From Candidatus Zhuqueibacterota bacterium (lineage in GTDB: Bacteria > Zhuqueibacterota > Zhuqueibacteria > Thermofontimicrobiales > Thermofontimicrobiaceae), in assembly GCA_049322915.1 (NCBI GenBank), contig JBMOPW010000007.1, forward strand, positions 372,246-436,245: a DNA stretch of 64,000 bases, given 5' to 3'. The notes beneath the pieces were generated by a model. It saw only the letters and a list, made by a program, of their open reading frames with translations, ran no database searches and had not been told where the DNA came from. This document shows, piece after piece, positions 6,256 to 53,698 of this stretch (its first letter is position 1; each line of letters begins with the position of its first letter). Made by a program: the position numbers and the translations under genes.

Positions 6256-7533
6256 TCAGTTGCCTGTGGTGAATGTCAAACTGAAATTCTTATCCAGTGA
6301 ATTGCCCCAGGCATCGGTGCAGGTGGTGTCGATAGTGACGGTATATGTCGTGAGCGCCGCCATTTTTGCTGTGCCCGTGTATTGAAATCGGCTCAAATCG
6401 TACCATTGAAAATTTCCTCCTTCCACTGCTGGTGTCAGCCGAAACGCGCGTTCTGTTTTTTCCTGGTTCACAAACGTGTTGAACGAGATTGAGATTGAAG
6501 CGGATCTGTTGACATAGGTTGCGCCATTTTCCGGGTAATTTGTTGAAACTGTCAGAGGTTCAGTTCTGAAAGCAAATGTCTTGACTTCGGTGAGCTGAGA
6601 GCCGAAAACATCGTTCGCCTTGCCATCAATCCTGACGGCGTAGAGCGTATTACTCGCCAGCGGAATATAGGGATAAAAGCTGACCTGTTTCAAGTTGTGC
6701 CAGTGCAGGACGCCATCCACCGCCGGGACGATGGAAAAGTTTTCATCGAATGTCGCACGATCCATATTTGAATTAAAAAAGATATATACGTATGTTGCCG
6801 GAGAAATGAAAGTCGCCTGGTCGGTCGGGCTTGTATTGGTTATTTTTATTCCCTCACTCTTGAAAGAAGCGGATAACTCGAAGGACAGGGTGTCCCCGTA
6901 AATAGTGTTGGCGTCCGTAGTCAATGTTATCTGATAGGTTGTATTGGTGGCGAACTGCTCGTCCGGGTAAAAATAGACTTTGCTTTTTTCGGCGCTATCC
7001 TCCCATCTGAAATATCCTGATACTTCAGGATCGAGGATGAAATTGGCTTCGACTGAAGAGTGCATCATGGGAGTGTTGAATTCGATGGAAATGGGGTAGG
7101 AGACAGGGTGAGACGTGGTTCCGTCTGCTGGATTCAGACCGGCGACCTGTTCGGGAAAGGGTTTTAAATAGACATCCTTAATCGCAGTCGTCCGTTGTGA
7201 ATACACAGAGATTTCATTGATGAACTGGCGGCCAAATCCCTCGGCTGAGAATTCCAGATTGTACACGCCGACCGCGACATTGGTCAGAATGAAATAGCCG
7301 GATGAATCAGTTTGAGTTGTTTGAATCAGCTTCCCCTGAAGCAGATTGACCTGGGCGATAATGCCAGACGGCTTTATCAACCCGGCAATTTTCCCAAAAC
7401 TCTCTTCAATCGAGTAAGGCTGTTCTTCTGTGCACGTGAGTGTGAACAGAAGTAACATAGCCAGGCTAAAGTGCCAGCAATTACGACGCAAGCTGCCCTC
7501 CCAGTACCTTTTAGTTCTCAATAGAATTAACAT
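6256..7533 (-). CDS. Lipoprotein with carboxypeptidase-regulatory-like domain and three Big_5 Ig-like domains
   Basis: Lipobox-like 'LTC'; 'TQTDSSGYFILTNVAVGVYNL'; three repeats 'P.DG.T......I.I.FN..M' ; true start is probably downstream of 7533. Confidence 0.75.
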   Translation of the reverse strand: MLILLRTKRYWEGSLRRNCWHFSLAMLLLFTLTCTEEQPYSIEESFGKIAGLIKPSGIIAQVNLLQGKLIQTTQTDSSGYFILTNVAVGVYNLEFSAEGFGRQFINEISVYSQRTTAIKDVYLKPFPEQVAGLNPADGTTSHPVSYPISIEFNTPMMHSSVEANFILDPEVSGYFRWEDSAEKSKVYFYPDEQFATNTTYQITLTTDANTIYGDTLSFELSASFKSEGIKITNTSPTDQATFISPATYVYIFFNSNMDRATFDENFSIVPAVDGVLHWHNLKQVSFYPYIPLASNTLYAVRIDGKANDVFGSQLTEVKTFAFRTEPLTVSTNYPENGATYVNRSASISISFNTFVNQEKTERAFRLTPAVEGGNFQWYDLSRFQYTGTAKMAALTTYTVTIDTTCTDAWGNSLDKNFSLTFTTGN

Positions 7534-7651
7534 GTTAACAATTAAATAAGATTTTTTATCAATGTCAAGCTATTTTTCGTATGTCCGCATCTGGTGGCCA
7601 GTGAAAGGATTCAAATTCACGGGCCGGCGATTAAGGAATTGTAAATTTTGC

Positions 7652-7680
7652 TTGCAATTTTTCTTTAAATATGTTAAACT
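7652..7680 (+). promoter_or_regulatory. sigma70-type promoter for the SBP-kinase operon
   Basis: TTGCAA-N17-TAAACT with TG extended -10. Confidence 0.55.
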
Positions 7681-8084
7681 AAAGACTCAATGTTACGAGT
7701 GCAAGAATACCATCAGACGGAAGGAATCGCTATTTCTTTTTGTTGAAAATTGAGCGCACTTTTCCAATTCGATGAGAGATGGAAAGCGGTGGTGCTGAGT
7801 TTAACCGCATCGGATGAACGGGATGAAGGCATAGAGCCAACTCAAAGCGGAGTTGCTCTATAATGTGAGGACGGCTGTCGCGTGGAGTCATTATAGAATA
7901 TCAAAGCATTCTGGCGATCTGCCGTCGAAACAGTACCAATCGCTGATGTCGGTTTTAAGAGCGTTTCTCATCAAGGAATGACTGACTGGATTTTCGATGT
8001 AAAAAGACAAGGTCGGGTGTTGCATTTTCGGGCGCCTGGAATTTGGAAAATTAGAAAATTTATTCAAATGGAGATTTAGAAATT

Positions 8085-9323: not shown

Positions 9324-11099
9324 ATGAAGACTCAACAGCGCATAAAATTAAAACATCGGTTTATTACCAAACTGCTGATATCGCACATTCTGCTCGCATC
9401 CATCCCGATTATCCTCACGGGCATTGTTTTAATTCATACCGCGCAAAACGCTGTTGAAGTGACGGTCAAAGATCAGAACATGAAGCTGGCCCGGCACATT
9501 GCTAAAAACATAACGCTCACCATTGAGAACGCCGAAAACATCTTGAAATACAATGCCGAAAATGTGCTCAGCACGCGGCAGAATAGCCTGGCTCAGGAAA
9601 TTGACATCAATACCATGGTCCATCAATTCCCCATTTTTCGCGCCATCAAATTGTTGAATGATTCGGCCCGTGTCATTATTTCGACGATCATTGCCGACAG
9701 GAATACAGATTATCGCCACGAAGATTTTGTACCACAGGTGCTCGACGATATCGGCTTTAAATCTGAAGTTTACCTCTCAGACGAAATGCTCCCGGTCATG
9801 CAAATTGCTGAACCCACGCGACTATTCAACGGAAAGGATGGCGTACTCCTGGCTGAGGTAAATTTGAAAGACCTGCTTGAACTGGTGGAATACAGCATCA
9901 TCGGCTCGGAGGGCGAGGCATTTGTATTTGGAAAAAGTGGCCAGTACGTGGCTCACTCTGAGCGGAAGAAGGTCTATCTCAAAGAGCGATTCACCGAGGA
10001 GGCGATTCTCCGGGACTTCTTCAATAATTTTAATAATCAGCGCGTGTACAAAAATTCGACCGGTGTGGAAATGGTGGCTGCTTATGTCATCCTTTCCGAA
10101 TTGAGTTGGGGAGTGGTGGTTCAGCAACCCACAAAGGAAGCGTTTGCCGTGGCGCGGAAGATGAGCGGCCAGATTCTTTTGTTTGTGGGCTTCAGCATCC
10201 TGCTGTCATCGCTGATCGCGTTTGTGTATACACGCTGGATTGTCACCCCGGTGAATCAACTGGTTTCAGGCATCGATAAATTTGCAACCGGAGATTTGAA
10301 ATACCGCATCCCCATGCTGGGGACGGATGAGGTGTCCATGCTGGCTGGCCGATTCAATGAAATGGCCGAGAAACTGACTCAATTTCAGGAGAAATTGAAA
10401 CGGACAGAACGTTTGGAAACGCTCAGCAAAATGGCTTCTGTCCTTTCCCATGAAATTAAAAATCCGCTAAATGCTATGGTTGTCAATATGCAGGTGATGG
10501 AACGCGAGTTCAACCGGAGTGAACCGAAAATTTCAAAACTCAGACATTATCTGGGCGTCGTGGCCGGAGAAATTCAGCGCGTTGATGATCTTGTCAATAA
10601 TTTTTTAATGGTCGCGCGTCCCCCTAAATTAGATCGCAAACCGGAAAATATGGATAAAGTGCTCGATGAGATCATCATTTCTCAACAGGCAGAGGCCTTG
10701 CAATCCGGCGTGAGAATCAAACGGCGTTACCAGGGAGCCGATGTGAGCTTGCTCATCGATGTCACGAAAATCAAACAGGTGTTTCTGAATATTCTCTTGA
10801 ACGCGATTCAAGCCATGCCGGGCGGCGGCAATTTGACAATTGAACTTGAAGTCGTTCGTTCCGAGATAAAGGGGATTTACAAAACGTGGATCGTCACCCG
10901 TTTCAAAGATGATGGCAAAGGCATGAAAAAAGAGCACATCGCAAACATTTTTGACTTCTATTACTCGACGAAGCCGGGTGGCTCCGGACTGGGGCTTTCT
11001 ATTGCCCAGCAAATCGTTGAAGAGCATGGGGGACGCATTGAAGTGGAGAGCGAAGAGGGAAAAGGCAGCGTGTTCTCAGTCTTTTTGCCCAAAAGTTAA
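9324..11099 (+). CDS. Sensor histidine kinase (dCache-HAMP-HisKA-HATPase)
   Basis: Two TM helices; HAMP 'DEVSMLAGRFNEM'; H-box SHEIKNPL; N-box; DDGKG; GSGLGL. Confidence 0.92.
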   Translation: MKTQQRIKLKHRFITKLLISHILLASIPIILTGIVLIHTAQNAVEVTVKDQNMKLARHIAKNITLTIENAENILKYNAENVLSTRQNSLAQEIDINTMVHQFPIFRAIKLLNDSARVIISTIIADRNTDYRHEDFVPQVLDDIGFKSEVYLSDEMLPVMQIAEPTRLFNGKDGVLLAEVNLKDLLELVEYSIIGSEGEAFVFGKSGQYVAHSERKKVYLKERFTEEAILRDFFNNFNNQRVYKNSTGVEMVAAYVILSELSWGVVVQQPTKEAFAVARKMSGQILLFVGFSILLSSLIAFVYTRWIVTPVNQLVSGIDKFATGDLKYRIPMLGTDEVSMLAGRFNEMAEKLTQFQEKLKRTERLETLSKMASVLSHEIKNPLNAMVVNMQVMEREFNRSEPKISKLRHYLGVVAGEIQRVDDLVNNFLMVARPPKLDRKPENMDKVLDEIIISQQAEALQSGVRIKRRYQGADVSLLIDVTKIKQVFLNILLNAIQAMPGGGNLTIELEVVRSEIKGIYKTWIVTRFKDDGKGMKKEHIANIFDFYYSTKPGGSGLGLSIAQQIVEEHGGRIEVESEEGKGSVFSVFLPKS

Positions 11100-33893: not shown

Positions 33894-34718
33894 TCACCAC
33901 AGCGGAATATATCCCACGTCCCGGATAGCTGCCTGTCCCTCTTTCAGCGTGTAATTGATGAACTGTTTTACAATGCCGCGCGGCGAATCAATGGTATAAA
34001 GGTACAGATAGCGCGTGATGGGGTAGGTATCATTTCTCACATTTTCCTCAGTGGGTTCCACGTTGTTTATCCTGCAGTGGACGACCTCTTTGCCGTAGGC
34101 GAGACCGCCATATCCGATTGCTTCTTCATTTTCCTGCACAGCTTTGACAATGGCCGAAGTGGATGTGAGGATCTGAGCGAATTGGCTGTAGGGTTCGCCT
34201 TCGAGAATATGCTCGCGAAAATAGATGTAAGTGCCGGAATTCGGCGATCGTATGAGCACCAGAATTGGACTCATTTTCCCGCCGATCTGACTCCAGTTGG
34301 TTATCTCGCCCCTGTAAATTTTCGCCAATTGCTCGATGGTCAAATTTTTGACCGGATTCTCCGGGTGAACATAGATGCTCAGCGCGTCTTTGGCGACGAG
34401 AAAATTCATCCCGATTTTATTGTATCGCTCAGCCAGCAGCCGCGCTTCATCGGCCAGCACCGGCCGGGAAGCGGTGCAGATATCGGTCTTGCCCTGAATG
34501 AGCGCTTCAAATCCTTTGTGCGAACCACCGCCTTCCACATAGACCGATGTGTTGGGGGAAATTTTCATGTATTCTTCAGCCCATCGCGAGGCCAATATGA
34601 GCATGGTATCCGAGCCCATGATGTGAATGGTGTCGTGTCGCGCGCGAATGATATGACTGCAATCCGAAACGATGATCAATAGCAAAATCAGAATTAGTAT
34701 TTTTCTCATGACAACCAT
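33894..34718 (-). CDS. pstS: PstS-family phosphate-binding lipoprotein (second copy)
   Basis: GSDTM, GGGS..G, ASR, 'RSPNSGTY.YF', 'AIGYGG', 'YPITRYLY'. Confidence 0.88.
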   Translation of the reverse strand: MVVMRKILILILLLIIVSDCSHIIRARHDTIHIMGSDTMLILASRWAEEYMKISPNTSVYVEGGGSHKGFEALIQGKTDICTASRPVLADEARLLAERYNKIGMNFLVAKDALSIYVHPENPVKNLTIEQLAKIYRGEITNWSQIGGKMSPILVLIRSPNSGTYIYFREHILEGEPYSQFAQILTSTSAIVKAVQENEEAIGYGGLAYGKEVVHCRINNVEPTEENVRNDTYPITRYLYLYTIDSPRGIVKQFINYTLKEGQAAIRDVGYIPLW

Positions 34719-43841: not shown

Positions 43842-44117
43842 ATTCTCGACCTATCTCAGCAGAGGACGGATAGCTCGCTTCAGCGAACATGCCGGTCAAT
43901 CGGCGAGACATTGTCTTCCGCTCACGTCCTATTTGTTTTATCGCCACGAAAACTCGAATTCACGAAGTTGCACAACGAAACACACTTATTTTTATTGAAT
44001 AAAATTTAATTGTTCGATCTGGAATGGATTTGATTAAGTCAAATAGTCTCCTTCGAGTTATAGCGGCAGTTCCTGGTGATGTGACAAAGTCGAATTAACA
44101 TGTTGCAAAATTTCCTG

Positions 44118-44146
44118 TTGACTATTCCCGTATTTTTTTGTATTAT
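44118..44146 (+). promoter_or_regulatory. sigma70-type promoter upstream of phoU-pst
   Basis: TTGACT-N17-TATTAT. Confidence 0.6.
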
Positions 44147-44335
44147 TGAGAAATCATTTTCCCAATCGCATAGACTGGGTAAACGCCAGGCAATGGAAAG
44201 GACGAATGTCGCTATGCAGTCAGAACATGGCAGCGCAGGCGTTCGAATCGCTGGCGGCCTCTATCGTGAGTTATCTGGAAGTAAATATTCAACGAAACAC
44301 ATTGAACATCGGAAACGGGAAATTTCCAATCCTCT

Positions 44336-44368
44336 GTTAACATGGTTGTAACTTTAGTTTAGTAAACT
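44336..44368 (+). promoter_or_regulatory. Pho-box-like array upstream of phoU-pstSCAB
   Basis: GTTAACATGGT/TGTAACTTTAG/TTTAGTAAACT; shares TCTGTTAACATGG (13 bp) with the 36558 site. Confidence 0.7.
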
Positions 44369-44562
44369 TCCCGGCACCTTCATCTCAAAGTTTGCTGAAA
44401 AAGCGTTCAGCGCCAGGCAAATCAGAAACTTGGAAACCAAGACCCAATTCAGAAAACAAAACGTAACAGAAATTGGCGCAACAAAGTTAGCGCCCATTTT
44501 GAGGGACAGTCATTATGCGAGAAGACAAGACTCAATTATTGGATGATACGAGGAGTTTTGAC

Positions 44563-45666
44563 ATGTCGTCAATTTTGGAAGAGCGATTGAGGCGCGGCAT
44601 TGATCTCATTCGCAACAAGGTTTCCGAGATGGCAATTCAAGCGGAGCGGGCCACCGAAGCCAGCCTGAAATCGTTGACAGAGAACAATCGCAAACTCGCC
44701 TATGCGGTCATTTTGCGCGACCAGCGAATTGATCAACTGGAAAAGGAACTTGACCGTTTGTGCCTGGAGTTTCTCGTTCGGCAACAGCCCGTTGCCGGGC
44801 ATCTGCGTTTTGTGTATGCGACAATAAAAATCAATACAGACCTGGAACGCATCGGCGACTATGCCGAGAGCATTGCCCGACAGGTGCTGTTCATCAGTTC
44901 CATTGATCGAAAAATTTCAATGAATCGATTCATCGAGATCGGGGAATTAGCTATTAAAATGCTGCACGACGCGACTCGGTCGTTCATCGATCAGAATGCG
45001 GACCTGGCGCGAAAAACCATCGAATTGGAGAGACAGGTGGATTGGCTGCGCACGCAAATTCGCGTCGAATTGTTGCAGCTACACCGCGATGGGAAAATAA
45101 CGCTGGAAGAGATCATCCCCATGCTGGTGATTGCCGCCCGGTTCGAGCGCGTGGCTGACCAATCGGTGAATATTTGTGAAGAAGTGCTGTACATTTGTAC
45201 CGGCGAAGTGCTGAAGCACTCCGGGCTGGAGACCTTCCGCGTGCTTTTCCTTTCCAAAGGAAATTCAATGCGGAGCCAGATGGCAGAGGGAATTGCCAAT
45301 TCACTGGGCATGGAACAGTTCGTTTTCACCAGCGCTGGACTGACCCCACGTCTGGTCGATCCCCGGGTTGTCAGTTACATGAAGAAAAAGGGCATCGATA
45401 TTTCCATGCAAAATTCCAAATCGATTCAACAAGTCCCCAATCTCGAACATTATCAGGTCATTATCCTGCTCAGTAAAGAAGTGGAAGAGTCGGCTCCGAT
45501 TTTGCCGGCCAAGTCCATTATGCTGCAATGGCTCACGCCGGATCCTTCCTACGCGGAGGGTTCCGTTGACGAGATTGATAAAACATTCGACAAAACATTT
45601 GAATATCTGAACACTCATATCCGTGATTTTGTGCAGGCTGTACTGAGTGATGAAATGTATCCCTAA
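44563..45666 (+). CDS. phoU: PhoU fused to an ArsC/LMW-PTP-like domain lacking the catalytic Cys
   Basis: Two PhoU repeats ('QPVAGHLR', 'DLERIGDYA', 'ERVADQSVNICE'), then 'VLFLSKGNSMRSQMAE', 'SAG', 'QNSKSI', 'W..PDP'; AGGAG RBS before ATG 44563. Confidence 0.9.
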   Translation: MSSILEERLRRGIDLIRNKVSEMAIQAERATEASLKSLTENNRKLAYAVILRDQRIDQLEKELDRLCLEFLVRQQPVAGHLRFVYATIKINTDLERIGDYAESIARQVLFISSIDRKISMNRFIEIGELAIKMLHDATRSFIDQNADLARKTIELERQVDWLRTQIRVELLQLHRDGKITLEEIIPMLVIAARFERVADQSVNICEEVLYICTGEVLKHSGLETFRVLFLSKGNSMRSQMAEGIANSLGMEQFVFTSAGLTPRLVDPRVVSYMKKKGIDISMQNSKSIQQVPNLEHYQVIILLSKEVEESAPILPAKSIMLQWLTPDPSYAEGSVDEIDKTFDKTFEYLNTHIRDFVQAVLSDEMYP

Positions 45667-45685
45667 TTGAAATGGAGGAAGTACA

Positions 45686-46624
45686 ATGAATACACGCTAT
45701 TTAAAATTGTTGGCAATCGGAAGCATGATTCTGCTTTCTGCCGGCTGCTCCAAAAAGACTGAAGAGAGCGGCAATGTTGCGACCGGCGACAAAGTGACTA
45801 TCCAGAACATCGGCTCTGATACCATGGTGAATCTGGCGCAGGCCTGGTCCGAAGAGTATGCCAAAATTGAACCCAATGTTTCGGTGGAAGTTTCCGGCGG
45901 CGGCTCCGGCACCGGGTTCGCAGCTCTTGTGAATGGCACCGTGGATATTGTGAACGCCAGTCGCGAAATTACCACGGAAGAAAAAGAGAAGGCAACCGCC
46001 AATGCACAGGGCCAGACACCACAGGAATATATCGTCGGCTACGACGCGCTGGCAGTGTATGTGCACAAAGAAAATCCGCTGAATGAAATCAGCATCGAAC
46101 AGCTTGCTGAAATTTACGGCGAAGGTGGCGCCATTGAAAAATGGTCGCAGTTGGGAATCACCAACACGGAATGCCCCAATGACGAGATCATCAGGATCAG
46201 TCGTCAATCCAATTCCGGCACCTACATTTATTTCCGGGAACATGTCGTCGGCCAAACGCGCGATTTCAAACTGGGCTCCACGGACCTGCACGGTTCCAAA
46301 GACGTGGTCGAACTCATTGGCAAAACACCCTGCGCAATCGGCTACAGCGGTATGGGCTACACCACGCCCGATGTGAAAATGCTTAAAATATCTGCGAAGA
46401 CCGGCGGAGTGGCAATTCCCGCTGAAGTTGAGACGACATTGAATAAGACTTATCCCATCGCTCGCCCGTTGTACCTGTACACGCACGGTGTTCCCAACGA
46501 TGCCACTCAAAAATATATCAATTGGATCCTTTCAGATGCCGGGCAGTTGGTGATTGAACAAATCGGATATGTCCCATTGCCAAAGACCCCTATTGAAACC
46601 CCGACGGCGCAGGAAGGGAAATAA
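45686..46624 (+). CDS. pstS: Phosphate ABC transporter substrate-binding lipoprotein
   Basis: Lipobox SAGC; GSDTM, GGGSGTG, SRQSNSGT, YPIARPL. Confidence 0.93.
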   Translation: MNTRYLKLLAIGSMILLSAGCSKKTEESGNVATGDKVTIQNIGSDTMVNLAQAWSEEYAKIEPNVSVEVSGGGSGTGFAALVNGTVDIVNASREITTEEKEKATANAQGQTPQEYIVGYDALAVYVHKENPLNEISIEQLAEIYGEGGAIEKWSQLGITNTECPNDEIIRISRQSNSGTYIYFREHVVGQTRDFKLGSTDLHGSKDVVELIGKTPCAIGYSGMGYTTPDVKMLKISAKTGGVAIPAEVETTLNKTYPIARPLYLYTHGVPNDATQKYINWILSDAGQLVIEQIGYVPLPKTPIETPTAQEGK

Positions 46625-46630
46625 GCAAGC

Positions 46631-47521
46631 ATGAACTGGAGTCGTATCGAGGCTAAAACCGAACCGATCATTGAACTCATCATTCGGCTATGCGGAATTA
46701 GTGCGATCATTTTTGTGTTCGGTATATTTTTCTTCGTATTCCGGGAAGGCGCAGATTTCCTGTTCAGCGGATTGGACATCAAAGAATTCTTCACAAGCGT
46801 CGAATGGTATCCGAATTCATTCAGCAACAAGCGCTATGGCGTGCTGGCGTTGATCACTGGCACGGCCAGTGTCACGCTTCTGGCGATGGCCATCGCCGTG
46901 CCGTTTGGACTGGGATCCGCGATTTTCATCTCCGAATTTTGCAATCCCCGGATGAAAGAGATGCTGAAGATTGTCATTGAACTTTTAGCGGCGATTCCAT
47001 CCGTGGTCTGGGGATTCATTGGTTTGACCGTGATGAACCCGATCATCATCAACGTGTTTCACTCTTCCATCGGCCTGAACATGCTCAACGGGGGCATTAT
47101 CCTCGCGTTGATGAGCGTGCCCATCATTGTGTCCATTGGTGAAGATGCATTGAAGGCGGTGCCTGACTCGTTCCGCGAGGCGGCCATCGCCCTCGGCGCC
47201 ACCCGCTGGCAGGTTGTGTACCGCGTGCTGCTCCCTGCCGCGCGAAATGGTCTGCTGGCGGCCGTGCTGCTTGGCATCGGACGCGCCGTGGGAGAGACAA
47301 TGGCGGTGCTGATGGCGACTGGCCATGCCATCAAAATTCCTACCAGTGTCCTTGATTCAGTGCGTACATTAACGGCGACCATCGCCGCAGAATTGGGAGA
47401 AGCCGCAGAGCACTCGGAGCATTATCAGGTGCTGTTCATCATCGGTATCCTGCTTTTTATGATCACCTTCGCAGTGAATCTCATCGCGGATCTGGTAGTG
47501 AAAGGAGTGCGGGAGAAATAG
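46631..47521 (+). CDS. pstC: Phosphate ABC transporter permease
   Basis: 'ELLAAIPSVVWG', EAA motif 'EAAIALGATRWQ', 'RAVGETMAV'. Confidence 0.95.
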   Translation: MNWSRIEAKTEPIIELIIRLCGISAIIFVFGIFFFVFREGADFLFSGLDIKEFFTSVEWYPNSFSNKRYGVLALITGTASVTLLAMAIAVPFGLGSAIFISEFCNPRMKEMLKIVIELLAAIPSVVWGFIGLTVMNPIIINVFHSSIGLNMLNGGIILALMSVPIIVSIGEDALKAVPDSFREAAIALGATRWQVVYRVLLPAARNGLLAAVLLGIGRAVGETMAVLMATGHAIKIPTSVLDSVRTLTATIAAELGEAAEHSEHYQVLFIIGILLFMITFAVNLIADLVVKGVREK

Positions 47522-47624
47522 CGCTGCGCAGAGAATATTTCGAACGTGCGCCAATCGGTTCAATCAAAATTACCAACAGGGAGGTTTTCCAGGGCATGAA
47601 ATCATCGAATAATTGCATCACGTT

Positions 47625-48521
47625 ATGAACGAAATTACCTTCACAGAAACGCCGTTTGTGCGGCGGAAGAAATACACTGAGAAGCTGGCGCGCACGATTT
47701 TCCTGCTGATGGCGCTGGCGATGATCATCCCGTTGATCGCGATCGTCGGCTACCTTGTCATCAAGGCAATGCCGGTCCTTTCGCTCGATTTTATACTGGA
47801 GAATCCCACCAATCGCATGCGCTCCGGCGGACTCTGGGCGCCGCTGGTGGGGACAATCTATCTCGTGGTCATTTCGCTGGTGATTGCCACGCCCACCGGT
47901 GTGCTGGCCGCAGTTTACCTGAATGAATACGCGCGCGAAAGCTGGTTCACTCGCGTCATCAATCTGGCGGTGGTGAATCTTGCCGGCGTTCCCAGCATCG
48001 TCCACGCGCTGTTCGGACTGGGCGCGTTCGTGCTGTTCGCCGGTCTGGGACGCTCCATTCTGGCGGCGTCGCTGACGCTGGCGATCATGACGCTGCCCGT
48101 CATCATTGCCAGCACCAAAGAGTCGCTGTCATCGGTGCCCATGGCGTTTCGCGTCGCTTGCTGGAATGTCGGCGCAACGCGCTGGCAGACCATCCGCTCC
48201 ATCGTGCTGCCCAATTCCATCAGCGGGATTCTCACTGGCGTGATTTTGCAGGTGTCCCGCGCTGCCGGAGAAACAGCGCCGATCATGTTCACCGGCGTCG
48301 TGTTTTTCAAAGCGTTGGGCGACCACAGCTTTTTCGCCTACGGCTTGTTCGATCAGTGCATGGCTCTGTCCATGCACCTGTTCACCATTTCCACCCAGGT
48401 GACCGGCGTTCCCGAAGCGCTGCCTTACGGCACGGCCGTCGTGCTGATGGCCATTGTGCTGCTGACCAACGGGCTGTCGATCATCTTTCGGGTGTACTTG
48501 CGGTCGCGGAAGAAGTGGTAA
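47625..48521 (+). CDS. pstA: Phosphate ABC transporter permease
   Basis: 'AVYLNEYA', 'LAGVPSIV', 'RAAGETAP'. Confidence 0.95.
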   Translation: MNEITFTETPFVRRKKYTEKLARTIFLLMALAMIIPLIAIVGYLVIKAMPVLSLDFILENPTNRMRSGGLWAPLVGTIYLVVISLVIATPTGVLAAVYLNEYARESWFTRVINLAVVNLAGVPSIVHALFGLGAFVLFAGLGRSILAASLTLAIMTLPVIIASTKESLSSVPMAFRVACWNVGATRWQTIRSIVLPNSISGILTGVILQVSRAAGETAPIMFTGVVFFKALGDHSFFAYGLFDQCMALSMHLFTISTQVTGVPEALPYGTAVVLMAIVLLTNGLSIIFRVYLRSRKKW

Positions 48522-48646
48522 GAATATGCACGACTGCTTTGTCTGGAAAACATCAGGCGAGACATGAAGCAGATACTTCTATTGCTATTTTGGTTCAATA
48601 AATTTCATGAAGAGCAATTGAAGATTTTAAGTGAAAGGCTAATTGA

Positions 48647-48815
48647 ATGAGCCTTGTGCGGGAGGGGGCTAAGAAACTAATTGAAAATCTCACGGATCAG
48701 GCGCCTGGGACGATTTGATGTATGAAATGTTTGTCGGGAAAAAATTGGTGAAGGCTTAAAAGCCGCTGATGAAGGAAAGCCAATCTCCCACGTGGATGTC
48801 AAAACGAAATGGCTG
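48647..48815 (+). pseudogene. Frameshifted type II antitoxin remnant (RelE/ParE-partner type)
   Basis: With two 1-nt deletions restored it reads MSLVREGAKKLIENLTDQA-WDDLMYEMFV-EKIGEGLKAADEGKPISHVDVKTKWL. Confidence 0.65.
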
Positions 48816-48893
48816 ATTATGCCCTGGGAAAAAATATAAAAATGATTGTACAAAAGAATTGGCTAAAATAAACACGACTGTCGTTCTCGGTTT

Positions 48894-48946
48894 CTTTTTA
48901 CCTTCGGCCTGTTAGATCAGTGCATGGCGTTGTCCATGCACCTGTT
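48894..48946 (+). repeat. Diverged partial copy of pstA segment 48330-48382
   Basis: Encodes FTFGLLDQCMALSMHL versus FAYGLFDQCMALSMHL in pstA. Confidence 0.85.
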
Positions 48947-49107
48947 ATACCAATGGTGTGAATGAAAAATTCATATATAATGAGTTAAGAGAATTTGGAT
49001 GATTTTGTATTCTGAGAAAATTAGCTATTTGTTGTGTGCATGAAGATGACTTCTTTAGTTTTTAAATAACTCCAAATTAAGAGATTACAATCGTAATCAT
49101 TTAATGA

Positions 49108-49410
49108 ATGGAATATTGTATGGATCGAGAGAAAATTATTCAAACATTAAAGAAATTCAAAGAAGAGAATAAAGATAAATATCATATAAAGAGTCTTGGA
49201 CTATTTGGCTCTGTTGCAAAAAATTGCATGAGAGATAATAGCGATATTGATGTGGTAGTAAAATTAACGAAGCAAGACTTATTTGATTTGATTGGTATTA
49301 AGCAAGATTTAGAAGCGCTACTGAAATATCCAATTGATGTGGTTAGTTACAGAGAAAAAATGAATGCCTTTCTTAAAAAACGGATTGATGAGGAGGCTGT
49401 GTATGTATGA
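49108..49410 (+). CDS. mntA: MNT minimal nucleotidyltransferase antitoxin (MntA)
   Basis: 'LFGSVAKNCMRDNSDIDV' GSX10DXD motif; stop overlaps the hepT start; AT-rich. Confidence 0.88.
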   Translation: MEYCMDREKIIQTLKKFKEENKDKYHIKSLGLFGSVAKNCMRDNSDIDVVVKLTKQDLFDLIGIKQDLEALLKYPIDVVSYREKMNAFLKKRIDEEAVYV

Positions 49411-49774
49411 TAAAGAGCTTGCCAGAGAAATACTGCAACAAATTTATCATGCCATAGAAATTGTTTTGCAGAGATTTGAACCGATAAAAAAGGTAAGTGA
49501 TTTTACGGATAGTCCTTCAGGGATGGAAAAATTGGATTCGATTTGTATGCAATTAATCGTAATTGGGGAAGGATAAAAAAATATTGATAAGGTGACAGAG
49601 AATTCCATATTGCAGAAATATCCTCAAGTAGAATGGAAAAAAGTGAAAGGACTAAGGGATATAATTACACATCATTATGTTGATATAAATGCAGAAGCTA
49701 TCTACGATATATGTGAGAATAAAATTACACTTTTGGCTCAAACTATAAAAAAGATATTAAATGATTTTGAGTAA
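49403..49774 (+). pseudogene. hepT: HEPN/DUF86 toxin (HepT) with an in-frame nonsense codon
   Basis: MYDKEL...IGEG*KNIDKV...WKKVKGLRDIITHHY; TAA at 49574-49576; both halves are in the same frame. Confidence 0.85.
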
Positions 49775-49791
49775 TTATTTTATGAAAACTG

Positions 49792-49924
49792 GTTCAACAT
49801 CTGGCTTAAGTTGACCCGAAGTGCTCCTTTTGAAATCGAAGTTTCAGAGCGCCGCATTCGTTATTTTCTAGTGCGAAAGTTCTGTGCGCCGCAACCGTCG
49901 GGCAACTTAGCTTCGTTGTTGAAT
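49792..49924 (+). mobile_element. Integron attC-like recombination site (133 bp), no integrase in window
   Basis: R'' GTTCAAC, 5-nt spacer, GCTTAAGTTGACCCGA ... TCGGGCAACTTAGC, 6-nt spacer, R' GTTGAAT; two extrahelical bases. Confidence 0.75.
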
Positions 49925-49977
49925 ATTTCCCTTTTGTTGATAACCCTGATGCTTATGGAATTAATTTATAAAAAAGA

Positions 49978-50757
49978 ATGAATTTGTTCATGTCAGACAA
50001 TACCCAGAAAAAAATTGAAATTTCCAATCTCTCAGTCAGTTACGGTAAGGTATCGGCCCTGCGCAATATCTCATTCGATGTGCATCGCAACGAAATTCTG
50101 GGCATCATTGGGCCGGCAAAATCAGGGAAATCCACCCTGCTGCAAGCCATTAACCGAACCATCGACCTCATCCCTAATGCGAAGGTCGAAGGGACCATTC
50201 GCATCGACGGCGAGGACATTTCCAAAATAAAAAATGTTAATGCCCTGCGCCGGAAAATCGGCATGGTTTTTCCGCTGCCAGTGGGGCTACCGCTATCGAT
50301 TTACGACAACGTCGCGTTCGCCCCGAGGATGGCCGGCGTGCATCAGCGCGCGGCGCTGGATGAAATTGTCGAGCGCTGCCTGAAGCAAGCAGCCCTGTGG
50401 GATGAAGTGAAAGACCGATTGAAGAGCCTCGGCACCAAGCTCTCCGGCGGACAGCAGCAACGACTGACCATTGCGCGGGCATTGTCGCACAATCCGGAAA
50501 TTCTTTGCCTTGACGAATTCTCCATTGCGGTGGATCCGGTGACCACCATGCGCATCGAGGAGGTACTGAAGGATTTCAAATCGAAAATAACTATCATTCT
50601 GGTCACCAATCTGGTGCAGCAGGCGCGGCGCATCGCCGACCGCACCGCGTTTTTCCTGAACGGCGATCTGCTGGAAATCGACCGCACCGATGTGATTTTC
50701 TCCGATAATCCGGCGCACCGTCAGACGTACGAGTACGTCACCGGCATTTTTGGATAG
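49978..50757 (+). CDS. pstB: Phosphate ABC ATPase PstB1 (intact signature; degenerate Q-, D- and H-loops)
   Basis: GPAKSGKST, LSGGQQQRL, LCLDEFSIAVD, VTNL, terminal 'YVTGIFG'. Confidence 0.9.
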   Translation: MNLFMSDNTQKKIEISNLSVSYGKVSALRNISFDVHRNEILGIIGPAKSGKSTLLQAINRTIDLIPNAKVEGTIRIDGEDISKIKNVNALRRKIGMVFPLPVGLPLSIYDNVAFAPRMAGVHQRAALDEIVERCLKQAALWDEVKDRLKSLGTKLSGGQQQRLTIARALSHNPEILCLDEFSIAVDPVTTMRIEEVLKDFKSKITIILVTNLVQQARRIADRTAFFLNGDLLEIDRTDVIFSDNPAHRQTYEYVTGIFG

Positions 50758-50843
50758 GCCGAACCGACCTGATCCGGCGAAACGCAAATCCGTTGTGGAT
50801 TGACAAATCAATCAGTTATATCTCACAAAATCGAATTGACAAA

Positions 50844-51620
50844 ATGAACGAAGCACCCACATACAGCGTTGAAACGCACAATCTCAATCTCTGGTATGGG
50901 TCATTTCAGGCGCTGAATAACATCAACGTCAAAATCAAAGACCGACTCATCACCGGGCTCATCGGTCCCTCCGGCTGCGGCAAGACCACCCTGCTCCGCA
51001 CGTTCAACCGCATCAACGAACGCTATGGAAACGTCACCACAGTCGGCGAGATAAAAATTTTCAACAAGAATATTTATGACGAAGACGTTTCGCTGATCGA
51101 ACTGCGCAAAAGCGTGGGCATGGTCTTTCAGCGGCCAAATCCGCTGCCGATATCCATCTATGAAAATATCGTCTTTGGCATGCGCCTGCATTTCGGCGCC
51201 ACGACGCTGAAAAAATCCGAGTTGGACGCGTCCGTCGAACAGTCGCTGAAGGACGTTTTTCTCTGGGATGATTTGAAGGACAAGCTCAAAAAGCAGGCCA
51301 CCAGCCTGCAACTGGAGCAGCAGCAGAAATTGTGCATCGCTCGGTTGTTGCCTTTGAAACCGCGCGTCATTCTGATGGACGAACCCTGCTCCGCGCTTGA
51401 TGTGGAAGGCACCCGCGCCGTGGAAGACTTGATGCTCAGCCTGCAGGAAAAATTCACTATTATCATTGTCACGCACAACATGGCCCAGGCGCGCCGAGTG
51501 AGCGATGAATGTATTTTTATGCTCCTCGGCGAATTGATCGAACACAGCGATACCGACGATCTCTTCCTCAATCCCCGCAATCCCAAAACTGCCGATTACA
51601 TCGAGGGCCGCTACGGATGA
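50844..51620 (+). CDS. pstB: Phosphate ABC ATPase PstB2 (degenerate signature motif)
   Basis: GPSGCGKT, VFQRPNP, LQLEQQQK, LMDEPCSALD, VTHNM, 'YIEGRYG'. Confidence 0.92.
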   Translation: MNEAPTYSVETHNLNLWYGSFQALNNINVKIKDRLITGLIGPSGCGKTTLLRTFNRINERYGNVTTVGEIKIFNKNIYDEDVSLIELRKSVGMVFQRPNPLPISIYENIVFGMRLHFGATTLKKSELDASVEQSLKDVFLWDDLKDKLKKQATSLQLEQQQKLCIARLLPLKPRVILMDEPCSALDVEGTRAVEDLMLSLQEKFTIIIVTHNMAQARRVSDECIFMLLGELIEHSDTDDLFLNPRNPKTADYIEGRYG

Positions 51621-51972
51621 TCCAGGCTGAATCCACTCAGCGTTTCTTCGCTGCTCTGCGACCTCCCGAAAAAGTCCGTCCTCGTTCCAGATAATCCGCA
51701 GTACATCCTCGAATCAAATGACCGTCCTGCCGATTCCCGGCATTCTGTCCACAATGCATTGAATTCTAAAAATTAACCGGCAGTTACCGTATTTGATGAG
51801 TCTTCGAATAGCGCAATGGATGATGCGGGTACGGGTATGAAAGGCGAGTTTCCAACGCGGAGCCAGGGCGGTAAGTGCGTCCCGTTTTGACTGTGGCAAA
51901 GATAAATCGGATCCCTTCAGCCAGAGGCAGTCCGCTCAGTCAGCGTCGAATGGCTGCATCACAGCGGCTGCG

Positions 51973-53463
51973 TCAGTTCTGCTCGTCCATTTGGTAGGCG
52001 ATGGATTTTCGATCCGGGCCGGTCGTTCGCCGGAAATAATTCCATTTGGGAAAATTGAAGTCCGAGGTGATGGATTTAGGCAGCAACAGCACCGCTTTTA
52101 AAAATGATTCCAGGTCAGGCACGTTGTAAATATTGACGCTGAAACCCCAAAAGTCCATCTGGTCGAGGATGTCCGGCAGATCCGGCGTATTCCAACTCAG
52201 GGAAAATCGGTTGACGCCCCGGGATTTTAAAAGCAGCAGATATTCGTGGGCTTCCTCCGGTGCCTGTCGCATCTGAAAAATCAAATTGTCAATAGGGCAT
52301 TGAATGATGGCCAGTGGATGGGTTTTCATCAACTTTTGGAAACCGGACTCAATGATGACATCGGTGCGGCCGTTGAACCACAGATAGTAATCATTAATCT
52401 TGTATTGCTCCACGAGCGCCAGCAGACGATCCAGCACGTCCCCGCCTTCCTTGATGTCCAGCTTGATGGATTTGTTGGCACTCAGTATCTGTTCGAACAT
52501 GTCGCTCAGAAGCAGGAGTTTCTCGTTCGGTTTTTGGGGCGAGGATTCGAACGATTCGCTGCGCAGAACAAGCGCACCCGTGGCCGGGTCGGTGCGGACA
52601 TCGACCTCAGCCCATTCCACATTGGAATCCAGAAAACTGCGCAGATTGGATTCATCGTTCACCCTGTGCCAGACAAACTGGACATTGCGGGGCAGGGAGC
52701 GCTCCCGAACCAGATCGACGATGTCGTATTGCTTGCCGCTCATCGAATTGGTGGGAAGGCTCTGTCGCTGCGACTCAAAGATCGTGTCCGCGTGGAGAAG
52801 CAGTATCTCTTTATTGGTTCTGTTTTGGGCAATGACCTCCAGATTCGACGGTTCATTATCGATGAACGCCACGATCCTGAAACCGATGCGCTGAAAGTGA
52901 AAAATGCCGGCGTCTTTGGATTCCGGGATGCCTTTTTCCGGGTCGGAATTCAGATAAATCAATTCATCTCTGAACGATACCTTGTATTGCCGGCCAAGTT
53001 TGTTCAATGAAAGCAGCGTATCCTCCCGCAGCGTTTCCGGGCGGCCGCTGTTCAATCCGACGTAGGTATTGGGCTGCATCTGAAACCAGCGGATCACTTC
53101 CATGACGCCGGAAAATGGCCGATGCGATTCATAAATGGCCAGTGACGACCAGCGCTGTTTTATGTACCAGCTCAGAATTTTCTTCTCTTCCGCTTCGGGA
53201 AGGGATAGCCTTGCCAGAAAGCTGTCCAATTGATTTTCATGAAACGTAATATGAGCTATTTTCAATTGACTGAAATATTTGGTGTTGTGAACCTGATCGT
53301 ATAGCTGAAGCACGTAATGAATCATGTAGCGCATGTCAATGATGGTGCCGTCAATATCAAAAAGGAGCAGGAGCCGGTCATTCGGATAGCGGTTCCGCAT
53401 CTTCTCGTAGTGGCAGGCTAATTGTTTCATCCAATTCTTCATTGTAATTTCCTGAGATGTCAT
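51973..53463 (-). CDS. HAD-family hydrolase fused to a FAM151/DUF2181 (GDPD-like TIM barrel) domain
   Basis: 'LLLFDIDGT', 'NSGR', 'FIDNE'; C-terminal 'VWHRVN...NVEWAEVDVR', 'IKLDIK', 'LWFNG'; start 53442 or 53463. Confidence 0.7.
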   Translation of the reverse strand: MTSQEITMKNWMKQLACHYEKMRNRYPNDRLLLLFDIDGTIIDMRYMIHYVLQLYDQVHNTKYFSQLKIAHITFHENQLDSFLARLSLPEAEEKKILSWYIKQRWSSLAIYESHRPFSGVMEVIRWFQMQPNTYVGLNSGRPETLREDTLLSLNKLGRQYKVSFRDELIYLNSDPEKGIPESKDAGIFHFQRIGFRIVAFIDNEPSNLEVIAQNRTNKEILLLHADTIFESQRQSLPTNSMSGKQYDIVDLVRERSLPRNVQFVWHRVNDESNLRSFLDSNVEWAEVDVRTDPATGALVLRSESFESSPQKPNEKLLLLSDMFEQILSANKSIKLDIKEGGDVLDRLLALVEQYKINDYYLWFNGRTDVIIESGFQKLMKTHPLAIIQCPIDNLIFQMRQAPEEAHEYLLLLKSRGVNRFSLSWNTPDLPDILDQMDFWGFSVNIYNVPDLESFLKAVLLLPKSITSDFNFPKWNYFRRTTGPDRKSIAYQMDEQN

Positions 53464-53698
53464 GTTTTTAAGGGGCGTTTCGCTCGCCCGAAATTTCAAC
53501 CGGGCGAGCTAATTTTAAACTATTCTGGTTTGTATTCTTGCCTCAACGTCCTCAAGTCACGAAGTAACATGAAGATGTCAATTTCATTTTTAAAACCAAA
53601 TTCAGCTTTTCAGAATCGATCATTTTGGCAATTTCTTTTTCTTCGCGCCGTTGAGACGGAATAGTGACGCCACTTTTTCCCTTCATAATTGTAAATAT

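Follow-up and report, generated by a model that had tools for sequence, protein, structure and literature searches.

The window analyzed here (64,000 nucleotides of contig JBMOPW010000007.1 from Candidatus Zhuqueibacterota bacterium, assembly GCA_049322915.1) carries a pst operon for phosphate import in which two adjacent genes, pstB1 and pstB2, encode different ATPase subunits of the ATP-binding cassette (ABC) type. The motifs of these two proteins, and the way they are conserved among relatives, suggest that PstB1 and PstB2 pair with each other and that only one of their two ATP sites is catalytic. The operon is made up of the following genes and intervals, given in window coordinates.

44515 to 45666, plus strand: fusion of PhoU to an LMWPc/ArsC-like domain, 383 residues, the first gene of the operon (TIGR02135 and PF01451).
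45686 to 46624, plus strand: PstS phosphate-binding protein (TIGR02136, 235.4 bits for a cut-off of 206.6).
46631 to 47521, plus strand: PstC permease (TIGR02138, 289.6 bits for a cut-off of 196.45).
47613 to 48521, plus strand: PstA permease (TIGR00974, 251 bits for a cut-off of 193.45).
48522 to 49977: spacer of 1.46 kb and low GC content between pstA and pstB1, an insertion without counterpart in most relatives.
49978 to 50757, plus strand: PstB1, 259 residues, the proposed non-catalytic partner (best family TIGR00972).
50793 to 51620, plus strand: PstB2, 275 residues when read from a TTG, the proposed catalytic partner (best family TIGR00972).

The true start of PstB2 is probably the ATG at 50844, which gives a protein of 258 residues, rather than the TTG at 50793, since the orthologues are about 258 residues long and align from that point. 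No PstB-like gene other than these two was found within the window.

Both proteins are nucleotide-binding domains (NBDs) of ABC transporters, with matches to PF00005 (ABC_tran) of 98.3 bits for PstB1 and 87.0 bits for PstB2, where the cut-off is 25. The PstB family TIGR00972 is the best full-length match for either of them, and both miss its equivalog cut-off of 343.2 bits (297.3 for PstB1 and 327.3 for PstB2). They share 46% (PstB1) and 50% (PstB2) identity with PstB of Escherichia coli and 38% with each other. By their profile scores, PstB1 and PstB2 are thus diverged PstB paralogues, not equivalogs. An AlphaFold2 model of PstB1, built from 38 sequences, had a mean predicted local distance difference test score of 87.3 and a predicted template modeling (TM) score of 0.84; its best matches in the PDB were the E. 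coli PstB chains 9k3s_C and 9k3x_C (TM score of 0.88 to 0.94, 45 to 46% identity). PstB2 matched 9k3x_C at the sequence level with an E value of 8e-77. The fold of PstB1, the sequence match of PstB2, and their position beside pstS, pstC, and pstA therefore identify both as PstB proteins.

The sequence motifs of the two proteins, translated back from the DNA and aligned to PstB of E. coli K-12, deviate from the consensus at different places. All of them lie on the plus strand.

50110 to 50136: PstB1 Walker A, GPAKSGKST, off consensus (A-K-S in place of S-G-C; GPSGCGKST expected).
50263 to 50280: PstB1 Q-loop, MVFPLP, with Pro99 aligned to the Q-loop Gln.
50440 to 50454: PstB1 signature, LSGGQ, consensus.
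50503 to 50535: PstB1 Walker B and D-loop, LCLDEFSIAVD, with IAVD for SALD and a Phe for the Pro that follows D-E.
50599 to 50616: PstB1 switch, LVTNLV, with Asn211 aligned to the switch His.
50964 to 50990: PstB2 Walker A, GPSGCGKTT, consensus.
51120 to 51137: PstB2 Q-loop, MVFQRP, with Gln113 present.
51306 to 51320: PstB2 signature, LQLEQ, with Q173-L174-E175 aligned to S-G-G of LSGGQ.
51369 to 51401: PstB2 Walker B and D-loop, ILMDEPCSALD, consensus.
51465 to 51482: PstB2 switch, IVTHNM, with His228 present.

An earlier, sequence-only reading of this region had proposed that PstB1 keeps LSGGQ while having lost the Q-loop Gln and the switch His and having an altered D-loop (DEFSIAVD), and that PstB2 keeps Walker A, Walker B, the Q-loop, and the His but carries the signature LQLEQ. 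Both descriptions hold in the DNA and in the alignment to the E. coli protein. Two features of PstB1 can be added to them: its Walker A is altered, and yet both its Walker A Lys and its Walker B Asp-Glu are preserved.

The same reading would have failed if these substitutions were not conserved in homologous pairs. A genome scan with PstB1, restricted to one genome per species, gave 80 loci, in which the substitutions are invariant or nearly so. The loci span about six phyla (Poribacteria, KSB1, Verrucomicrobiota, Acidobacteriota, Myxococcota, and Fibrobacterota, plus others) according to the titles of the records, which are mostly depositor labels of metagenome bins, and the homologues share 65 to 89% identity across phyla. 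All 80 PstB1 orthologues have LSGGQ, a Pro at the position of the Q-loop Gln, an Asn at the position of the switch His, and a D-loop of the form DEFSIA[IV]D; their Walker A has A-K/Q-S replacing S-G-C. Lys51, Asp179, Glu180, and Tyr22 of PstB1 were invariant in 38 of 38 sequences. Among the best 120 relatives of PstB1 in the protein database (72 to 100% identical), crude pattern matching found VTN at the switch in 119 and GMVFPLP in 114. The motifs of PstB2 were scored in the 78 copies with more than 200 aligned residues: the Q-loop Gln and the His are present in every one of them, Walker A is canonical in 77, and the signature is LQLEQ in 74, LLLEQ in 3, LSLDQ in 1, and LSGGQ in none. The fixed substitutions are far beyond chance, because the same changes are found in 80 of 80 PstB1 and in 77 to 78 of 78 PstB2 orthologues.

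The two genes are also kept together. pstB2 directly follows pstB1 in 79 of the 80 loci; in the exception (L073) the contig ends 503 nucleotides past pstB1. The gap between the two genes is −24 to +4 nucleotides in 36 of the 78 intact pairs (L057, in which pstB2 is cut by the contig end, was omitted), and the gene order PhoU fusion-pstS-pstC-pstA-pstB1-pstB2 recurs throughout the related loci. At the level of genes and motifs, the pair has the hallmarks of an ABC dimer with one degenerate site: two distinct NBD genes that always occur together, save at a contig end; one NBD, PstB1, that has lost residues of the Walker face, if only in part because its Walker B Glu is retained; and a partner, PstB2, that has a non-consensus signature and an intact Walker face.

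Both PstB1 and PstB2 are under strong purifying selection, as the ratio of nonsynonymous to synonymous substitutions (dN/dS, NG86 method) was 0.05 to 0.16 for PstB1 and 0.02 to 0.18 for PstB2 in 6 of 8 close orthologue pairs; in the other 2 pairs dS was saturated and gave no estimate. We then located the changes that set the two proteins apart from ordinary PstBs. As reference we took 34 canonical PstBs, namely the E. coli protein and 33 representatives from the library that have every consensus motif; 92 alignment columns reach a conservation of at least 85% among them, and a column was counted as changed if a different residue was fixed in at least 85% of the PstB1 or PstB2 orthologues. PstB1 has 19 changed columns, which include, in E. 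coli numbering, positions 45, 46, 47, and 50 (Walker A), 98, 102, and 103 (Q-loop), 176, 180, and 182 (Walker B and D-loop), and 210 and 211 (switch), with none in the signature. PstB2 has 11, including 155, 156, 157, and 161 (signature) and 137, 142, and 143 (helical subdomain before the signature), and Walker A, Walker B, and the switch are all free of them. The two sets overlap in just two columns, 103 and 169, neither of which counts as a motif position. Such a distribution would be expected had one composite site been remodeled from both sides and the other spared.

A quick maximum-likelihood tree was built from 81 PstB-like proteins, with no Firmicutes sequence among them. PstB1 and PstB2 each formed a clade with maximal support (100 in the Shimodaira-Hasegawa-like approximate likelihood ratio test), on stems of 0.79 and 1.13 changes per column, respectively, and with short branches inside each clade. 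The sister pairs formed by the window with L001 and by L011 with L027 recur in both clades, as expected if pstB1 and pstB2 were inherited as a unit. Support was below 80 for 38 of the 78 inner branches, and the tree does not settle the deeper order of the PstB lineages.

All-against-all searches of the protein library, followed by two further homologue searches, revealed two sister families with related deviations. The first (alt-B1, P0140 and P0271 to P0389) branches as the sister of PstB1 (support 86) and has an Ala at the Q-loop position and an Asn at the switch in 120 of 120 members, LSGGQ in 119 of 120, and a normal D-loop. Its named members include Sorangium sp. So ce260, Polyangiaceae, and Gemmatimonadaceae. 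A tblastn search of plasmids with P0140 gave, among the matches listed, identities of at most 55.8%; those that carry an annotation are mostly labeled pstB. The second family (alt-B2, P0179 and P0390 to P0508) adjoins PstB2 in the tree (support 84) and has all the catalytic motifs, together with a signature resembling LSPEQ or LSAEQ in 110 of 120 members; those with names include Planctomycetes, Phycisphaerae, Brocadiia, Elusimicrobia, Acidobacteriota, and Bacillota bins. The shared mark here is a Glu, in the fourth place of the signature.

In ABC dimers the two NBDs are arranged head to tail: around each ATP, one subunit supplies the Walker A, Walker B, Q-loop, and switch, and the other supplies the signature. 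For ATP hydrolysis, the Q-loop Gln, the switch His, and the signature are each nearly essential. We therefore consider it likely, given the distribution of motifs, that the PstSCA importer is driven by an obligate PstB1-PstB2 heterodimer docked on PstCA and endowed with a single catalytic site. Site 1 would combine the catalytic motifs of PstB2 with the LSGGQ of PstB1; it would be fully consensus, and hydrolysis there would drive transport. Site 2 would combine the P-loop face of PstB1 with the LQLEQ of PstB2 and would have no Q-loop Gln, no switch His, and no signature Ser-Gly-Gly. The residues that hold the nucleotide would still be there (the Lys of Walker A, the Asp-Glu of Walker B, and, upstream of Walker A, a conserved Tyr), and the site most likely binds ATP and hydrolyzes it very slowly or not at all, so that it may act as a standing clamp or a regulatory site. 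The heterodimer should be obligate because neither a PstB1 homodimer nor a PstB2 homodimer would have a consensus site. From the motifs we infer the formation of the heterodimer, the occupancy of site 2 by ATP, and its catalytic silence. The underlying proposal of complementary degeneracy, with one consensus and one degenerate site, had been made in the sequence-only reading and is borne out by the conservation of the motifs, the adjacency of the genes, the purifying selection, and the placement of the changed columns. The composite geometry on which it builds is restated in passages of PMC3971661 and PMC7756269, and in the cryo-electron microscopy structure of E. coli PstSCAB, as described in part of PMC12976172, one PstB sits on PstA and the other on PstC, in both cases via coupling helices.

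Several observations weigh against this proposal. Whereas many degenerate sites of exporters lack the catalytic Glu of Walker B, PstB1 has kept it, and residual hydrolysis at site 2 is therefore possible. The wider PstB-like family includes the LSPEQ- and LSAEQ-like signatures of alt-B2: if the LSxEQ proteins work as homodimers, then a Glu-bearing signature is not in itself disabling, and if this type proves to be the sole PstB of some systems, the assumption of a disabling signature needs revision. Finally, passages of PMC12096839 report that excess PstB2 can replace PstB1 in Enterococcus faecalis, so that tandem PstBs are not necessarily obligate partners. In that species, however, both PstBs have consensus motifs.

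In a first alternative there is no fixed heterodimer. Transport would be powered by PstB2, paired with itself or with either partner, and the role of PstB1, as an ATP-binding protein, would be accessory or regulatory: it would compete for docking on PstCA or talk to PhoU or PhoR. This matches the description in PMC12096839, in the parts that bear on the two genes, of an E. faecalis pstB2 that is required and a pstB1 that is accessory. Against it, a PstB2 homodimer of the kind found here would have LQLEQ at both of its sites and no consensus site at all, and the only LSGGQ of the operon is on PstB1, where it is invariant in the 80 loci. Moreover, the adjacency of the genes in 79 of 80 loci, with starts and stops abutting or overlapping in 36 of 78 pairs, fits production of the two subunits in stoichiometric amounts. 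We regard this alternative as improbable.

A second alternative keeps the heterodimer and makes both ATP sites catalytic. Site 2 would be retuned: other residues would do what the Gln, the His, and the signature normally do, and two ATP would still be spent per cycle. The invariance of the PstB1 Walker A Lys and Walker B Asp-Glu (38 of 38 sequences) speaks for it, as does that of the substituted residues themselves (P99 and N211 of PstB1, and Q, L, and E of the PstB2 signature), which suggests selected chemistry over mere loss. Yet the four elements altered together all belong to one site, and nothing in the other has changed. In ABC proteins, losing just the switch His, or just the Ser/Gly of the signature, cuts ATPase activity by orders of magnitude. 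The pattern is also that of the known degenerate sites, as these are presented in parts of PMC3971661 and PMC7756269, and catalysis at both sites seems to us quite unlikely. The last alternative, that one or both genes are decaying duplicates whose odd motifs reflect early pseudogenization or relaxed selection, has the scores below the NCBIfam PstB cut-off in its favor and is hardly credible, being ruled out by intact frames in the window, 65 to 89% identity across phyla, dN/dS values of 0.02 to 0.18, and the invariance of the deviant residues.

The first gene of the operon had been linked to the pstB pair in the sequence-only reading, which proposed that the degenerate site may serve signaling with the PhoU fusion. 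Residues 27 to 231 of its product belong to the PhoU family (TIGR02135, 173.5 bits for a cut-off of 130.25), and residues 243 to 372 match the LMWPc domain (PF01451, 47.7 bits for a cut-off of 23.2). The P-loop region of the fused domain reads FRVLFLSKGNSMRSQ (45235 to 45294). It has a Ser at the position that we take to be that of the nucleophile Cys in the CX5R P-loop of low-molecular-weight phosphatases and ArsC. None of 41 fusions has a Cys at this presumed nucleophile position; apart from the Ser of the window, the residue is mostly Asp. The fused domain therefore lacks the nucleophile Cys that an active low-molecular-weight phosphatase or ArsC would have at the start of the P-loop motif. 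Judged by this residue, activity as an ordinary phosphatase or arsenate reductase is impossible, and the dead-enzyme domain might instead have a ligand-binding role, with phosphate or arsenate as the ligand.

The association between the fusion and the pstB pair was assessed in the 66 loci whose sequence reaches 1.2 kb or more beyond pstS on its upstream side. In 39 of them, and additionally in L064, the fusion precedes pstS; 27 lack it. Most of these 27 are Poribacteria-titled records, which instead have a short PhoU further downstream. A strict association is thus rejected. The tie proposed in the sequence-only reading is borne out only in part: the fusion accompanies the pair in 39 of 66 loci, but the pair also exists without it (27 of 66), and any tie between the two is therefore facultative.

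Many related loci carry further Pst genes. Downstream of pstB2, an extra module is found in the Poribacteria-titled loci L008, L010-L013, L015-L021, L023-L025, L027-L035, L038, L042, and L048. It mostly consists of a PstA-like permease (26 to 38% identity), a third PstB-like protein (36 to 45%), and a short PhoU; there is no permease match in a few of the loci. The group of third PstBs comprises 32 proteins, including 3 canonical ones from other loci. Its usual forms have LSIGQ or LSTGQ as the signature, an Arg at the position of the Q-loop Gln, an F[AV]TNKR switch, and a GELD D-loop, and six members sampled from Poribacteria-titled loci formed one clade with a support of 100. Elsewhere, L061 (32 to 4113) and L063 (368 to 4104) have a full pst operon (pstS, pstC, pstA, a consensus pstB, and a short phoU) directly upstream, and L036 has a pstB-phoU pair downstream (9603 to 11072, minus strand). 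Since these three loci carry second sets of Pst genes next to it, the asymmetric system can be one Pst in addition to another.

The spacer that separates pstA from pstB1 in the window is low in GC (0.411 across 48001 to 50000, a stretch that includes it), and three features were recognized within it.

48895 to 48946: 52-nucleotide relic copy of pstA, 87% identical to an internal piece of pstA at 48331 to 48382.
49108 to 49410: gene for an MntA-like nucleotidyltransferase (antitoxin), by profile matches.
49403 to 49774: gene for a HepT-like toxin, broken by an in-frame TAA at 49574 to 49576.

The 52-nucleotide copy looks like a relic of the rearrangement that introduced the insert. Among relatives, the gap between pstA and pstB1 is shorter than 30 nucleotides in 42 of the 78 loci where it could be measured. 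Gaps of about 0.8 to 1.2 kb occur in most Poribacteria-titled loci. Their content was read in L011 only, where a gene for an ion channel of the voltage-gated type lies between pstA and pstB1 (7295 to 8023; PF00520, 123 bits; PF07885, 65 bits) and includes the motif TVGYGD.

A scan of 44000 to 52200 for promoters and terminators gave nothing relevant to pstB1 and pstB2 that exceeded the expectation from shuffled sequence. About 10 kb upstream of the operon, there is a second PstS-like coding region (33900 to 34631, minus strand), with 41% identity to the PstS of the operon over 261 residues. On the other side, an open reading frame of 508 residues (51973 to 53499, minus strand) is convergent with pstB2; its N-terminal part has two matches to HAD hydrolases (22.5 and 20.5 bits), both below threshold, and it has no NCBIfam match.

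Heterodimers with a degenerate site are described as frequent among exporters in the passages of PMC3971661 and PMC7756269 that deal with them. The earlier suggestion that such asymmetry is unusual for type I importers agrees with these sources and with the corresponding parts of PMC11466899. The exporters TM287/288, BmrCD, PatAB, TAP1/2, and CFTR likewise have two unlike NBDs, with the defects in one composite site and the other intact (PMC3971661 and PMC7756269, in their accounts of these proteins). Their NBDs are fused to membrane domains, whereas here the NBDs are free subunits of a binding-protein-dependent type I importer. The nature of the defects differs as well: in the degenerate site of TM287/288, as given in a passage of PMC3971661, the Walker B Glu is changed to Asp, while here the Glu is kept and it is the Q-loop Gln, the switch His, and positions 3 to 5 of Walker A that are changed, together with Q-L-E in place of S-G-G in the partner.

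Importers with a degenerate site are mentioned in PMC11466899, in the part concerned with RbsA and NupO; from sequence, one ATP site out of two was likewise judged degenerate in these proteins. According to the same part of that source, their two NBDs are fused in one polypeptide, the systems are assigned to the type II importers, and the Lys of one Walker A has been lost. The pair described here differs in all three respects: its subunits are separate, its importer is of type I, and the Lys of Walker A is still present.

Closer relatives are found among the Pst systems themselves. E. coli PstSCAB (9k3x, 9k3y, and 9k3s) has the family, the fold, and the operon partners in common with the pair of the window, but it uses two copies of one PstB and thus two consensus sites, instead of two paralogues with one consensus site. 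Tandem pstB1/pstB2 genes (pstBA/pstBB) occur in E. faecalis and Bacillus subtilis, where two pstB genes are likewise adjacent in one pst operon, and the B. subtilis transporter has been modeled as PstBA-PstBB-PstC-PstA-PstS, as a passage of PMC11466899 states. The tandem PstBs of E. faecalis have unequal roles by the account in parts of PMC12096839. Both have consensus motifs, in contrast to the complementary defects of the window pair. The pair does not conform to the Firmicutes-type tandem as defined in the relevant passage of PMC12096839, since PstB1 deviates in Walker A, the Q-loop, and the H-loop and PstB2 in LSGGQ. The authors of that paper state, in the same portion of their text, that tandem pstB paralogues had not been compared in any earlier study.

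Our literature searches, which covered main texts and few subscription journals, returned no description of a complementarily degenerate pair of PstBs. What appears to be new here, as far as the motifs tell, is the exporter-style arrangement of a consensus and a degenerate site with free NBD subunits in a type I importer, with the catalytic Glu kept. Whether binding-protein-dependent importers need to hydrolyze two ATP in each cycle has been debated largely on the basis of single-site mutants engineered in homodimers, such as the HisP work cited in a passage of PMC3971661. The PstB1-PstB2 pair appears to be a type I importer in which a single active site has been fixed naturally, and it offers a means to measure the stoichiometry and to study the role of a degenerate site in an importer. 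As both proteins fall below the NCBIfam cut-off for PstB, automated annotation is blind to their two roles.

The Pst transporter is the sensor arm of the Pho regulon, and a built-in asymmetric site is a plausible handle on the signaling of phosphate status. Parts of PMC12976172, citing earlier work, propose that the conformations of the transporter are the Pho signal, probably acting through PhoU. One could go further and view site 2 as a purpose-built sensing site, more than a passive clamp, in a widespread and undescribed class of Pst systems. This is a tentative idea, and we think it rather doubtful; it is suggested by Pro99, Asn211, the A-Q/K-S of Walker A, and the Q-L-E of PstB2, which are as invariant as the catalytic residues. 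On this view, the sister families alt-B1 and alt-B2 would hint at a design of greater age and breadth than the PstB1/PstB2 clade. If it is true, site 2 would hold ATP or another phosphorylated ligand and report energy, phosphate status, or the conformation of the transporter to PhoU, and the dead phosphatase domain that is fused to PhoU in many lineages could itself bind phosphate.

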